This document shows, one piece after another, positions 2,904-13,326 of a stretch of 13,326 bases of DNA. Each line of letters starts with the position of its first letter. The stretch's first letter is position 1. Origin of the DNA: a virus; the UHGV virus genome UHGV-0203667; one strand, given 5' to 3'. A program made the position numbers and the translations under genes. The notes under the pieces are model-generated. The model ran no database searches. It was not told the origin of the DNA and was given only the letters and a program-made list of their open reading frames with translations.

Positions 2904-3053
2904 GTGGAAATTACAGATGTAATAGCGATCATCAACCTGGCTGTACTGTGGTGCGGTGTTGCCTACATAGCCGGAGTAACTGCAATCGACAACCTTGAAG
3001 AAAAAATGATAGATAAATACAAAAAGATTGTTGACAATCTCGCAAATAGCTGA
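2904..3053 (+). CDS. Small hydrophobic peptide (49 aa, GTG start), predicted single transmembrane helix with charged C-terminus
   Basis: SD GGAGG at 2894-2898, 5-nt spacing to GTG 2904; translation (V/M)EITDVIAIINLAVLWCGVAYIAGVTAIDNLEEKMIDKYKKIVDNLANS; stop TGA 3051-3053. Below the length cutoff of the ORF track. Overlapped by the minus-strand ORF 2868-3317, judged spurious. Confidence 0.4.
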   Translation: MEITDVIAIINLAVLWCGVAYIAGVTAIDNLEEKMIDKYKKIVDNLANS

Positions 3054-3059
3054 TAAAAT
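3031..3059 (+). promoter_or_regulatory. Near-consensus sigma70 promoter P1: TTGACA, 17-bp spacer, TAAAAT, with an A-rich upstream tract
   Basis: -35 at 3031-3036, -10 at 3054-3059; spacer contains the recurrent motif TCTCGCAAA (3038-3046); A-rich 3001-3026 resembles an UP element. Confidence 0.6.
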
Positions 3060-10587: not shown

Positions 10588-11631
10588 TTATTTAGCCTTG
10601 GCTTTTGCCAGAGCAGCGGCGGCGGTGTTTTTAACACTCACTTTAACCACCACCTCGGGCATCATATTCATAAATGCGTATGAGCTCTCGCAAAAGACCT
10701 CGCGCTTAGCTCTTGAATCTTGCATATACATGAAAGCTTCACGTGCAGCGCCGTTTGCCAGCTGCAGATTGCGAGCGCAAGGGCCAAAAAATTGAGTATA
10801 AACACCCATATCGCCCAGTGCATAAGGCTGGAATTGTGGGACCAGATAAGCAGTATTCTCTGGCAGACTATCCATTTGCACCACACGCAGGGCTAAGCCC
10901 GGAATGCGGAAGGTCGGGAAGCCCGGCAGAATATCCTCAGGGAACATCAGACCTTTGTCGGTAATGTTCTGATTGCCGAACAACAGCACTTTACGAAGCA
11001 GCTCGTCAGTCTGAATTGCAGCAAAGAGTTCAGCACGGCAGAACAGGGTGAAACCACGCAGGGCACGAACGACACCACGCTGTTTAACCTTGCTCAGTGC
11101 AACCAGGTCCTGCAGCTGTTTAAGGATATCTTGAGCTAGATCCACTTCAGAGGTGGACTGTTCTACTCCCAGCAGTTCGCACACATTCAGTTCTTTACCC
11201 TTGGTGAGGATAATTTTGTTCTCAAAGAGAGCAAGCTGGCGTGCTTCTTCGTGGGTCTGGCGTAAGCCTTCGCCAAGCTGAATAACACGACGAGCGGTTA
11301 CAGACTCTAAATTCTCTTCGGAATCTTTGCCCGGAACACGGATACCTTGCCAGTCTGACGGGAATATGGCCGAGCTGGCGGCTGTAAAGGCCATGTCGCC
11401 CGTGCCCGTTTCACGCTCATCTGCGGTAATGGTAGCCATCTGTTCACCGTAGCGCGGATACTGACCGAAAGCGGTTTGTTTCACCCTGCGAACTTTGTCG
11501 TACTCAAATTTGAACGTCGAAGAATAGACGGTAGTATTAAACACGTTCATTGCTGAAATAATCTGGTTATCCAGCGGGATATCTTTAATCAGACCACACA
11601 GATCGCGAACTTCGAATTCTTTCTTAGCCAT
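10588..11631 (-). CDS. Major capsid protein, lambda gpE-like (347 aa)
   Basis: Perfect SD AAGGAGG 6 nt upstream of ATG 11631 (the track's longer N-terminal extension is discounted); size about 340 aa; segments recalled as resembling lambda gpE (RRVIQLGEGLRQTHEEARQLA ~ RRRIIMQNMRDEELAIAQVEE; C-terminal REAFMYMQDS...PEVVVKV ~ AREFTMIQSAP...DEFVSV); preceded by a decoration-sized gene. Confidence 0.7.
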   Translation of the reverse strand: MAKKEFEVRDLCGLIKDIPLDNQIISAMNVFNTTVYSSTFKFEYDKVRRVKQTAFGQYPRYGEQMATITADERETGTGDMAFTAASSAIFPSDWQGIRVPGKDSEENLESVTARRVIQLGEGLRQTHEEARQLALFENKIILTKGKELNVCELLGVEQSTSEVDLAQDILKQLQDLVALSKVKQRGVVRALRGFTLFCRAELFAAIQTDELLRKVLLFGNQNITDKGLMFPEDILPGFPTFRIPGLALRVVQMDSLPENTAYLVPQFQPYALGDMGVYTQFFGPCARNLQLANGAAREAFMYMQDSRAKREVFCESSYAFMNMMPEVVVKVSVKNTAAAALAKAKAK

Positions 11632-11642
11632 TTTCAACCTCC

Positions 11643-11978
11643 TTATTGTGCAACACGCAAATCGCCATTGCTGGCAGCAACAACAGCGGCTAAGCCGTCT
11701 TTGTCCACATAGGCCGGATTGATGTAGCAACCTTTGTTCGCAACAACGATAAAGGAATCACCAACTTCAGCACGTTCTACAACCAGCAGCGGAGTTTTAT
11801 CGGTGTGCGTTGCTTTAACGAAGGTCTCAACCTCGCCAGCCTCAGTCACCACAACAACAGTGCCAGCCGGAATCTCAGCCTTAACTTTGTTTTTAACTTC
11901 AACGTCGCGAATACTAAATTGCTCATCTGCGGCGTATGAAATGATGTGTCCGCGTGTGCGGATAGTCATATCTCTCAT
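11643..11978 (-). CDS. Head decoration-like protein (111 aa), first gene of the head operon
   Basis: SD AGGTGA 5 nt upstream of ATG 11978; size and position immediately upstream of the major capsid gene match the lambda gpD arrangement; no sequence-level similarity to gpD confirmed. Confidence 0.6.
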   Translation of the reverse strand: MRDMTIRTRGHIISYAADEQFSIRDVEVKNKVKAEIPAGTVVVVTEAGEVETFVKATHTDKTPLLVVERAEVGDSFIVVANKGCYINPAYVDKDGLAAVVAASNGDLRVAQ

Positions 11979-12458
11979 TTGATCACCTGCGATTTAAATT
12001 AACTCCCCTCAAAGGGCTCAGGTATAACCTCTCAAACCACGACAGGCTCGGGCCGAAAAGTTATGCCGGAAATCTAAAGGGGGATTGATATAAGGAGAGG
12101 GAGATAGCCCCGCACCGTCCAAGCGGGGGCTATTCCATATGGGGAAAACCAACAACAGTTGGCTGATAGTTCACTGCATGGTTACGGTTGCTAGAGAGCA
12201 CTATCACGAAAGGCACTCCCCCGAATCAGTTCAGGCTGCGGTCACATCAGCGGGGAAATACCTTTCGGGATAGCTACCCACACCGAAAACCCGCAAAAGA
12301 AAACTGTGTGGATAACTAGCCCAATAGGAGAATTAATCGACCACTCTAAGATGATCAGGGTAGTGTTATTTATAAGGCGGCACCGCTACCTGGTCGCCGT
12401 TACTTTGGAGGAAAATACGGCAAATCACCTTCGCTAAATGATTCACGGTATACTGTAT

Positions 12459-12487
12459 ATTATATCAGTATTTACTCACATTGTCAA
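12459..12487 (-). promoter_or_regulatory. Consensus sigma70 promoter P2 for the leftward head operon: TTGACA, 17-bp spacer, TATAAT on the minus strand
   Basis: Minus-strand -35 is the complement of 12482-12487 and -10 the complement of 12459-12464; 22 of 29 positions identical to P1 (3031-3059); leaves a ~470-nt untranslated leader before ATG 11978. Confidence 0.6.
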
Positions 12488-12576
12488 CACCCTGATTATA
12501 TAAATTCTAATAATTAGCGTAGTAACGGTATTTTCAGACCTCTATCAATCCCATCAATACGTCACCTCATCCCTGA

Positions 12577-12622
12577 CCTGCTTTGCAGGCTTGGCACACA
12601 GCCAAGGTCGCAGCTATGCGAC
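12577..12622 (+). promoter_or_regulatory. Three-hairpin element copy 2 (CCTGC-ttt-GCAGG; CTTGGC-acaca-GCCAAG; GTCGCA-gcta-TGCGAC)
   Basis: Same three-stem architecture as 5117-5159; stem 2 differs by A>G paired with T>C, stem 3 by C>T paired with G>A; loop GCTA conserved. Confidence 0.5.
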
Positions 12623-12629
12623 TCCTATC

Positions 12630-12660
12630 ATCTATCATAACTTTTTCATTCGTGATAGAT
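12630..12660. promoter_or_regulatory. 8-bp inverted repeat ATCTATCA / 15-nt spacer / TGATAGAT, candidate operator
   Basis: Arms 12630-12637 and 12653-12660; lies between the three-hairpin element and the small rightward genes; ATCAAT repeats nearby (12544-12558, 12671-12682). Confidence 0.3.
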
Positions 12661-12757
12661 ATCTTTTGATCAATATCAATGTTTTCCTGGGATTTGCCCG
12701 GCTATAGTTCGAATCAAGGAAGGGGAGCATTGATAGCACCAAAACCGAACAAACAAA

Positions 12758-12772
12758 TCAACTTCTCGCAAA
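12758..12772 (+). promoter_or_regulatory. Conserved leader motif TCAACTTCTCGCAAA directly 5' of the SD of the 12784 gene (identical copy at 13301-13315)
   Basis: 15-nt exact repeat; both copies are followed by an SD-like sequence (AAAGGTGA / AAAGGGG); the TCTCGCAAA core also lies in the P1 spacer (3038-3046). Confidence 0.45.
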
Positions 12773-12783
12773 AGGTGATAGTT

Positions 12784-12906
12784 ATGGGTATCAAGAACAG
12801 TGCCAGCGCATGGCAAAAGGCCAGGTTTCATCACCCACACATTGTTAAGGCAATTGAGGTGGTTGGAGTGTTAGCCCTGATGTTAGCTCTGTGTGTGGAG
12901 GTGTGA
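12784..12906 (+). CDS. Small peptide (40 aa) with hydrophobic C-terminal segment, predicted membrane peptide
   Basis: SD AGGTGA at 12772-12777, 6-nt spacing to ATG 12784; MGIKNSASAWQKARFHHPHIVKAIEVVGVLALMLALCVEV; the track ORF starts earlier (12679) but has no RBS there. Confidence 0.45.
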   Translation: MGIKNSASAWQKARFHHPHIVKAIEVVGVLALMLALCVEV

Positions 12907-13008
12907 GATGGGCAAAGGAGGCAAAGCATTTTTTAATAGGTCTGGCTATCCTGGATGTTCTACTAATCATGATTGAGCGGAGTTTATGAACAGCATTGAG
13001 AGGAGTTT

Positions 13009-13269
13009 ATGACGGGGGCTAAAGATATCAGGAGACTGAGGGAAGAGCTGATAGCTGAAATTAAAGCTAAGGCAAAGCAAATGGAGATAGCCGCGCAAAT
13101 GGATGTAGCGGAACAGATGTACAAGATGGTTGAAGAGGGAACACCACGACAGGTTATCGCTAAAACCTTCGGTGTGGGGATCGCCACCGTGCACAGAAGG
13201 CTGAAAGCCTATGCCGACTACCACAACATTGAGAGAGGGGAGGATGGGAGATTTAAGAAGAATAAATAG
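13009..13269 (+). CDS. Small DNA-binding protein (86 aa): coiled-coil-like N-terminus plus C-terminal HTH of the Hin/resolvase or sigma region-4 type (TPRQVIAKTFGVGIATVHRRLK)
   Basis: SD GAGAGGAG before ATG 13009; preceded by a tandem-duplicated RBS-ATG unit and an 8-codon upstream ORF whose stop overlaps the start (ATGA). Confidence 0.75.
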   Translation: MTGAKDIRRLREELIAEIKAKAKQMEIAAQMDVAEQMYKMVEEGTPRQVIAKTFGVGIATVHRRLKAYADYHNIERGEDGRFKKNK

Positions 13270-13300
13270 TAGGAACAGTCCAACAGGTTATTAACTAAAT

Positions 13301-13315
13301 TCAACTTCTCGCAAA
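13301..13315 (+). promoter_or_regulatory. Second copy of leader motif TCAACTTCTCGCAAA followed by SD-like AAAGGGG; downstream gene start lies beyond the window
   Basis: Exact 15-nt match to 12758-12772, 32 nt after the stop of the 13009 gene. Confidence 0.4.
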
Positions 13316-13326
13316 GGGGTACCGTC

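Follow-up and report, generated by a model that had tools for sequence, protein, structure and literature searches.

Why should a small circular element keep a promoter of perfect consensus several hundred nucleotides (nt) away from the genes it appears to serve? The question is raised by UHGV-0203667, a complete circular element of 13,326 bases whose whole length is referred to here as the window. On its minus strand, a leftward promoter is followed by a long untranslated leader and then by the first gene of a head operon. A first-pass annotation of positions 11979-12783 proposed that expression of the capsid genes is controlled after initiation, by attenuation, processing or antitermination, rather than by promoter strength. 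The comparative data fit this proposal in its general form, while attenuation or antitermination in particular is suggested by the relatives of the element and by a C-rich tract, and not directly. It is very likely that a conserved structured leader RNA is made from the promoter. The best-supported reading of its role, with about an even chance of being correct, is that it gates the head genes after initiation, combining a stop signal with a masked ribosome site.

The promoter and the untranslated leader

The features that frame the leader are as follows.

12459-12487, minus strand: sigma-70 promoter, with TTGACA at 12487-12482, a 17-nt spacer and TGnTATAAT (-10 hexamer at 12464-12459)
11976-11988, minus strand: Shine-Dalgarno (SD) sequence AGGUGAU (11982-11988) and start codon (11976-11978) of the first head gene
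11643-11978, minus strand: first gene of the head operon, a gpD/SHP-like head-decoration protein of 111 amino acids, identified with AlphaFold2 and Foldseek
10588-11631, minus strand: major capsid protein (MCP), assigned to PHROG 29

The leftward promoter reported at 12459-12487 matches the consensus at 12 of 12 positions and has the TG extension as well. It is the only promoter-like site that a promoter scan finds in 11600-13326, and by simple arithmetic about 0.005 such 12/12 sites would be expected in 13.3 kb, counting both strands. Every relative keeps the promoter at 11 or 12 of the 12 positions (11/12 in the L010 clade and in clade II, both described below), and an A/T-rich conserved block (12488-12530) lies directly upstream of it. 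In the window, no sigma-70-like site of at least 9/12 lies between the promoter and the head genes, and none is found close to the gene start; weak 9/12 sites upstream of the head genes occur only in L010 and L024. Judging from the position of the -10 hexamer, transcription would start near 12452, and the leader would extend for about 474 nt to the ATG at 11978, in good agreement with the earlier estimate of about 470 nt.

The leader does not appear to encode a protein. None of seven RefSeq and two GenBank records annotates a coding sequence over it. Its three ATG codons (12247, 12179 and 12138) are each followed by a stop within two to three codons, a pattern that is real in the window but is not conserved, since relatives lose the ATGs or open longer frames. 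The statement that the leader lacks any open reading frame (ORF) is nearly right: a TTG-initiated frame of 45 codons exists at 12155-12018, yet it is interrupted by 2-nt and 4-nt indels in relatives. A leader peptide or other small ORF was rejected because indels disrupt the frames, not only among members of the window clade but also when L024 is compared with L025. The palindrome CCATATGG, to which attention had been drawn, is present at 12135-12142, but relatives read CCATGTGG or TCATGTGG at this place and it is therefore incidental.

Conservation of the leader in three clades

Conservation was measured as mean pairwise identity in an alignment of 17 complete plasmids. The identity is 0.994 for 12201-12300 and 0.985 for 12301-12400, equal to that of the best coding stretches, while the 3′ 125-170 nt of the leader evolve faster. 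By this measure, purifying selection acts more strongly on the leader core than on most of the coding DNA of the element.

Two more clades came to light when homologues of the decoration and capsid proteins were sought. The L010 clade consists of 13.3-kb E. coli plasmids whose capsid protein is 79% identical to that of the window. In clade II (L024, L025, L027 and L032-L034) the capsid identity is about 42%, and a resolvase gene and other genes on the same strand lie upstream. The leaders of all three clades are 474-543 nt long, contain no ORF and are always found directly upstream of the decoration and capsid genes and co-oriented with them, even in rearranged elements. In all 31 loci with the leader, each element copy has a single GGTG-N7-AYAARTAACA motif, on the sense strand; the four other loci lack it. 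The motif is absent from the genomes of IMG/VR and GTDB, where the single IMG/VR match, inside an ORF, is due to chance.

Structure of the leader RNA

The elements of the leader, in the order of transcription, are listed below.

12415-12451, minus strand: 5′-terminal stem-loop of the transcript, hypervariable
12376-12398, minus strand: GC-stem hairpin with the conserved loop CAGGUAGCGGU, identified by pairing and compensatory changes
12362-12375, minus strand: A-rich motif UUAUAAAUAACACU, with the cross-clade consensus AYAARUAACA
12349-12357, minus strand: anti-Shine-Dalgarno-like segment UGAUCAUCU, the predicted partner of the SD sequence
12271-12318, minus strand: predicted helix UAGUUAUCCACAC/GUGUGGGUAGCUA with a U-rich apical loop, containing a DnaA-box 9-mer
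12202-12272, minus strand: long helix (P-long), in which a 5′ arm (12251-12272) pairs with a 3′ arm (12202-12223) over 22 bp, with one C-U mismatch and 27 nt enclosed
12149-12162, minus strand: small hairpin CCAACUGUUGUUGG
12100-12136, minus strand: GC-rich hairpin (-21.3 kcal/mol) at the terminator position of the sister clades, with no U tract in the window
12049-12108, minus strand: C-rich, G-poor tract after the hairpin (C 37%, G 12%)

The description of the leader as structured is borne out in all three clades, where it folds better than shuffled sequences (z = -4.18 in the window, better than all 100 shuffles, -6.17 in L010 and -6.31 in clade II) and its helices covary. The 5′-terminal stem-loop has at least four alleles, each of which folds as a hairpin, with z between -1.4 and -2.9 for four window-clade alleles and L024 and a value of -0.5 for L010. 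The GC hairpin carries a loop with the cross-clade consensus CAG(G)UAGC(R)GGU and is followed, seven nt further on, by AYAARUAACA. Among five distinct sequences from the three clades, 96.7% of the cells in its stem are paired and two of the six pairs show compensatory changes, with three different Watson-Crick pairs at one position and a G-C/A-U exchange at another; its register is ambiguous, as a slide by -3 pairs equally well.

When P-long is compared in the window and L010, 8 of the 22 pairs are changed on both sides and 95.5% of cells are still paired, against 39-58% for slid registers. Since several of its G-U pairs would be A-C on the other strand, the helix belongs to the transcribed sense strand. 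In the small hairpin, pair 405/414 is A-U in ten sequences and G-C in nine, so that CCAAC/GUUGG alternates with CCGAC/GUCGG within the window clade. The clade II consensus has seven covarying pairs, of which a single hairpin beyond the terminator holds four. The helix at 12271-12318 keeps 10 of 13 pairs in L010, with no compensatory change, and is weakly supported outside the window clade. A repeat search of the leader returns the helix arms only. An alternative pairing of the trp type, in which the long helix would lend its G-rich arm to the C-rich arm of the hairpin, is possible in the window and was rejected because L010, inspected by eye, has no counterpart.

The terminator position and the ribosome-binding site

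The hairpin placed by the first-pass annotation at 12103-12135 is found, spanning 12100-12136, and it occupies the position at which the two sister clades have an intrinsic terminator. In L010, a 15-bp stem precedes T9, at about 365 nt from the start; in clade II, CCUCCCCUGUCC...GGGACAAGGGAGG is followed by U5-U7. The U runs of both clades fall at leader nt 333-402. In both clades, therefore, about 350 nt of structured RNA separate the strong promoter from the terminator, and a further 125-170 nt lead from there to the SD sequence and the head genes. In the window, the base composition of 12049-12108 makes this tract a candidate Rho-loading region.

In partition-function folding of the window, the SD sequence pairs with UGAUCAUCU with a probability of 0.96-0.99. 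An AUCAUCU segment is likewise the predicted SD partner in L001, L002, L015, L010 and L028.

A proposed gate after initiation and its rivals

On the best-supported reading, the very strong and apparently unrepressed sigma-70 promoter would yield a non-coding RNA of about 474 nt. Its first 350 nt or so would form a conserved folded domain, in which the stabilizing 5′ hairpin is followed by the GC hairpin with the A-rich single strand, then by the 22-bp helix and lastly by the terminator-position hairpin. On the resting plasmid, most transcripts would end or be silenced within the leader. In the sister clades they would stop at the intrinsic terminator, and in the window hairpin-assisted and/or Rho-dependent termination in the C-rich tract would act together with masking of the ribosome-binding site by UGAUCAUCU. 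The decoration and capsid genes would be switched on by read-through or unmasking. The trigger would be a factor that acts on the hairpin/A-rich module or on the polymerase, probably supplied by an infecting helper of the Vequintavirus type; candidate routes of release are a helper factor, inhibition of Rho and processing.

Several points weigh against such a gate. The window hairpin is followed by CUCCCUCUCCUUAUAU, without a U tract, and is not called a terminator by the scan; by analogy with the sister clades and from base composition, the stop signal of the window may be weaker or of the Rho type. Masking of the SD sequence is a plausible long-range thermodynamic prediction, and the partner differs or the pairing is weak in L006 and L008 and in most of clade II, L024, L032 and L034 among them. 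The covariation comes from few independent lineages (three clades, with most sequences more than 85% identical) and is suggestive rather than a statistical proof. The Pfam and PHROG matches of the ten largest ORFs include no antiterminator, and neither a Q-binding element nor a nut or ops site was identified in the window, although the factor could be encoded by the helper. The putative relation to a Vequintavirus-type helper is suggested by protein homology, and a search of 50 kb of a Vequintavirus genome returned no copy of the conserved module. An unlikely extension of the gate is that the domain of about 350 nt represents a new class of cis-acting RNA sensor, whose module would bind a protein or a modified RNA polymerase that an infecting virulent helper of the Vequintavirus type provides, leading to read-through and to unmasking of the SD sequence.

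The main rival, somewhat unlikely, is that the unit from promoter to hairpin is a stand-alone trans-acting RNA of about 350 nt, serving as a decoy or regulator of the helper phage, of copy number or of the rightward genes, in which case the head genes would be transcribed only through incidental read-through or from a promoter that the helper specifies. The constant size of the promoter-terminator unit, with U runs at similar leader positions in two clades and canonical terminators in relatives, would suit such an RNA, as would the fact that conservation is highest (12201-12400) before the terminator position is reached and gives way to a faster-evolving 3′ segment, and the resemblance of the invariant loop and A-rich motif to a recognition module. 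However, no target for such an RNA was found: neither the loop nor the A-rich motif has a complement elsewhere in the window, and the best duplexes with two plus-strand 5′ untranslated regions (UTRs) are no better than those of shuffles. The repeated CUCGCAAAAGG was also considered as an antisense partner of the leader loop UUUUGCGGG and rejected on the same grounds, the duplex energies lying within those of shuffles. A covarying hairpin is also present in the post-terminator segment, and in the window no independent sigma-70-like promoter that reaches 9/12 lies ahead of the head genes. Since the position of the unit upstream of the decoration and capsid genes, in the same orientation, is constant in three clades despite rearrangement, a role in cis is favoured, and a dual role could still apply.

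Alternatively, the leader could be a constitutive 5′ UTR that tunes expression without switching it: the 5′ hairpin would guard the transcript against decay, RNase III would process it at the 22-bp helix, and the structure would fix the level of translation. The presence of the 5′-terminal hairpin in every allele, the length of the duplex (22-26 bp, long enough for RNase III) and the failure to identify a regulator all agree with this picture. It is nevertheless quite unlikely, because the intrinsic terminators of two clades make read-through conditional or strongly limiting, constitutive capsid protein from a 12/12 promoter would be costly to the plasmid, and 200 nearly invariant nt exceed the usual needs of stability elements. 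It is highly improbable that the conserved sequence acts instead as DNA, either as a DnaA-dependent replication or partition element or as a pac/cos site for a helper terminase. A satellite must carry a packaging signal somewhere, near-matches to the DnaA box are over-represented in the window, and the DnaA 9-mer reported in the leader is indeed perfect, at 12307-12315, one base from the 12306-12314 first given. Its functional relevance, however, is doubtful. This single copy lies within a predicted helix about 3.2 kb from the iterons that probably mark the origin (2213-2322), is degenerate in L010 and absent from clade II, and was rejected as an origin. Furthermore, the compensatory changes and the G-U pairs point to a structure formed by the single-stranded sense strand, the co-oriented promoter is kept in all clades and no DNA similarity to phage records is found.

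A plasmid with a few virion genes

The post-initiation gate would operate on an element that exists as a plasmid. A separate circular plasmid of 13.2-13.7 kb, 91-93% identical to the window, is present in 7 of 5,426 complete E. coli genomes, and one record, L009 (NZ_CP043822.1), is a head-to-tail trimer of 39.6 kb with frameshifted copies. Strains E275a and VTB97448v are among the carriers. Homologues of the capsid protein occur on E. coli and metagenome contigs of about 13.5 kb. The family is also found in many Logan contigs, and the protein clusters with Logan contigs include P0004 (441 members), P0050 (283) and P0054 (56 blocks); scans of other collections returned four metagenome contigs only. 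No paper on this plasmid family was found in the literature searched.

The recognizable genes, based on Pfam and PHROG matches of the ten largest ORFs of the window, encode an O-like/HTH_36 replication initiator (Rep), a tape measure protein (TMP), a Neck1/tail-completion protein, a Dit-like tail-tube initiator, the MCP and small helix-turn-helix (HTH) proteins. The closest phage relatives of these proteins are those of Vequintavirus (rV5-like) phages, with an identity of about 50% for the Dit-like protein and about 25% for the MCP and for the TMP. Neither Pfam and PHROG searches of the ORFs nor Foldseek detected terminase, portal, sheath or tube genes in the window. Since these are not detected, the element presumably cannot build particles alone and looks like a satellite; it has some virion genes (decoration protein, MCP, Dit-like, Neck1 and TMP), together with Rep, but an incomplete set for autonomous particles. 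Judged by this gene content, it is probably a plasmid-borne phage satellite that has not yet been described.

The label of head operon is correct, as a decoration gene is followed by the capsid gene. Although the 111-residue product of the first gene has no Pfam or PHROG match, its AlphaFold2 model from a 10-sequence alignment (pLDDT 83) matches SHP of phage 21 (1td3, E 9e-4, TM 0.58-0.61) and lambda gpD in Foldseek. A model from the single sequence was unusable (pLDDT 38). An Alba-like RNA-binding protein, for which there are only weak sequence matches in the PDB, was set aside in favour of the gpD/SHP-like fold. For the MCP, Phage_cap_E is recorded in the clade II homologues.

Three related records were met in the course of the searches. 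The 30-kb contig L011 (NTNY01000053.1) has an insertion at 13452-21041 with strA/strB-type phosphotransferase, DDE transposase and TetR/tet-type genes. L035 (CP057043.1), a 20.7-kb E. coli plasmid without the leader module, encodes a Dit-like protein 41% identical to that of the window. CP057073.1, a 137.6-kb "plasmid" from the same cattle survey as CP057043.1, encodes a Dit-like homologue with 48.8% identity, about that seen with Vequintavirus phages, and its size also matches that of Vequintavirus genomes.

The region to the right of the promoter and other non-coding DNA

Two features lie in the region to the right of the promoter.

12577-12622, plus strand: three tandem hairpins upstream of the promoter, identified by folding
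12542-12781, no strand assigned: cluster of TGATAG half-sites (12542, 12625, 12632, 12653, 12731 and 12776), identified by hexamer count

This region had been described as a divergent control region, which is not a defining property, as the genes upstream of the promoter in clade II run in the same direction. That it has no canonical rightward promoter agrees with the scan of 11600-13326, in which no rightward site reaches 9/12. The three-hairpin element exists but is not constant, being present in some relatives and absent from others, and the mean pairwise identity of 12501-12700 among the 17 plasmids is 0.67-0.69. Nine of the 19 TGATAG copies of the window fall in 12164-13054, several as inverted pairs (ATCTATCA...TGATAGAT); the sites are probably operator half-sites of the rightward unit for one of the HTH proteins. 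An 18-mer, TCAACTTCTCGCAAARGG, occurs twice (12758-12775 and 13301-13318), each time directly upstream of the SD sequence of a plus-strand gene; 0.03 copies would be expected by chance, and the 18-mer is invariant even in L010. An unannotated ORF of 40 codons at 12784-12906 on the plus strand (MGIKNSASAWQKARFHHPHIVKAIEVVGVLALMLALCVEV) has a hydrophobic C-terminus and, by eye, a homologous 40-codon ORF in L010; it may encode a small membrane protein as the first gene of the rightward unit.

Elsewhere in the window, about 2.3 kb (531-2830) contain no conserved or annotated ORF and no Rfam match. Within this stretch, which may harbour additional non-coding RNAs or cis-acting sites, blocks 701-1000 and 1401-1700 are 93-98% identical across the 17 plasmids. 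At 2213-2322, four direct repeats of about 23 bp (ACTACTGAAGATTTCTCACTA-like) are probably the Rep iterons that mark the origin, and a separate array of 11-bp TATTTATCCCC repeats (561-611) follows the terminator of the first gene in the window. DnaA-box-like 9-mers with at most one mismatch number 13 in the window, against 3.6 expected and with none of 200 shuffles reaching 13; they are scattered, not clustered. Two strong extended -10 promoters with TG, at 2840-2868 (TTGACA-17-TAAGAT) and 3031-3059 (TTGACA-17-TAAAAT) on the plus strand, lie upstream of the replication/TMP block.

Significance

If the head genes are gated after initiation, an RNA switch would silence the capsid genes on the resident plasmid behind a promoter of maximal strength and would be released on helper infection. 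Such RNA-gated logic is not known from phage satellites, and the element family itself is not found in the literature searched. Known satellites (P4, SaPI/PICI and PLE) use repressor and antirepressor proteins; if the domain were a sensor, this satellite would detect its helper through RNA. Even a conservative reading accounts for about 1 kb of a 13-kb replicon that is non-coding yet nearly invariant. The loop (12381-12393), the A-rich motif including AUAAAUAACA, the 22-bp helix and the terminator hairpin provide precise targets for mutation.

Comparison with known systems

Because the leaders of the three clades match no family in Rfam 15, where the search returns only noise (snoRNA and miRNA-precursor matches with E >= 0.02, far below gathering thresholds), the leader may represent a new RNA family, one with a defined module. 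Two types of phage late promoter were considered and rejected. The T4-type late promoter TATAAATA in the A-rich motif is replaced by AATAAATA or AACAAGTA in other clades and has only two copies in the window. The late-gene motif of rV5, TggTAaAAtA (PMC3606486), is not enriched in the window, and its one resemblance is to the extended -10 of the leftward promoter.

The combination of a hairpin and an adjacent single-stranded motif in a promoter-proximal leader is shared with the nut boxA-boxB sites of lambda and rrn and with put of HK022. However, the module of the leader (loop and AYAARUAACA) resembles neither boxB nor put. A boxA-like string, UGCUCUCUAGCAA, follows the long helix at 12188-12200 and matches rrn boxA at 11 of 13 positions; as its sequence differs among members of the window clade and the other clades lack it, an rrn or lambda boxA was rejected. 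The ops element of RfaH (JUMPstart) has a 12-nt consensus, GGCGGTAGnnTG, in the non-template strand. It too was rejected, because the window loop CCAGGTAGCGGTG shares only GGTAGCG with it, the clade II loop reads CAGTAGCAGGT and no JUMPstart match has E <= 10.

In leaders processed by RNase III, such as the lambda N leader and T7 early mRNA, a duplex similar to that of about 22 bp seen here lies in untranslated RNA between the promoter and the first gene. RNase III needs about 20 bp or more of continuous double-stranded RNA, and the duplexes of 22 bp in the window and 23-26 bp in L010 are candidate substrates by their length. The duplex is nearly perfect, whereas T7 sites typically have internal loops.

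The P4 immunity leader (PLE promoter and CI RNA, with the related C4-type RNAs of P1 and N15) also belongs to a satellite/plasmid and has a constitutive promoter, a long untranslated leader and, as in the gate proposed here, control by RNA-structured termination within it. P4 differs in controlling replication and early genes rather than head genes, and in using seqA/seqB/seqC complementarity and a processed 69-nt RNA; the leader described here has no C4 match in Rfam and no repeated complementary boxes. In the lambdoid pR′-6S-tR′-Q system, a strong constitutive promoter produces an untranslated transcript that meets a terminator ahead of the late (lysis/head) genes, for which read-through is required, as is proposed for the head genes here. 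The distance to the terminator is 350-375 nt here and 194 nt in lambda, Q-type systems do not need the conserved covarying RNA structure, and neither a Q homologue nor a Q-binding element is recognized in this element, whose window hairpin lacks a U tract. The lambda pause-inducing element is a -10-like repeat just past the -10 hexamer. The window has the same geometry, with TATACC 6 nt after its -10, while in other clades the repeat has other spacings. Unlike both the P4 and the lambdoid leaders, the one described here combines a long, covarying RNA domain and its distinctive hairpin/A-rich module with the lack of a recognizable antiterminator. Taken by analogy of layout, the lambdoid pR′-6S-tR′ late leader and the P4 immunity leader appear to be the nearest analogues of this leader.

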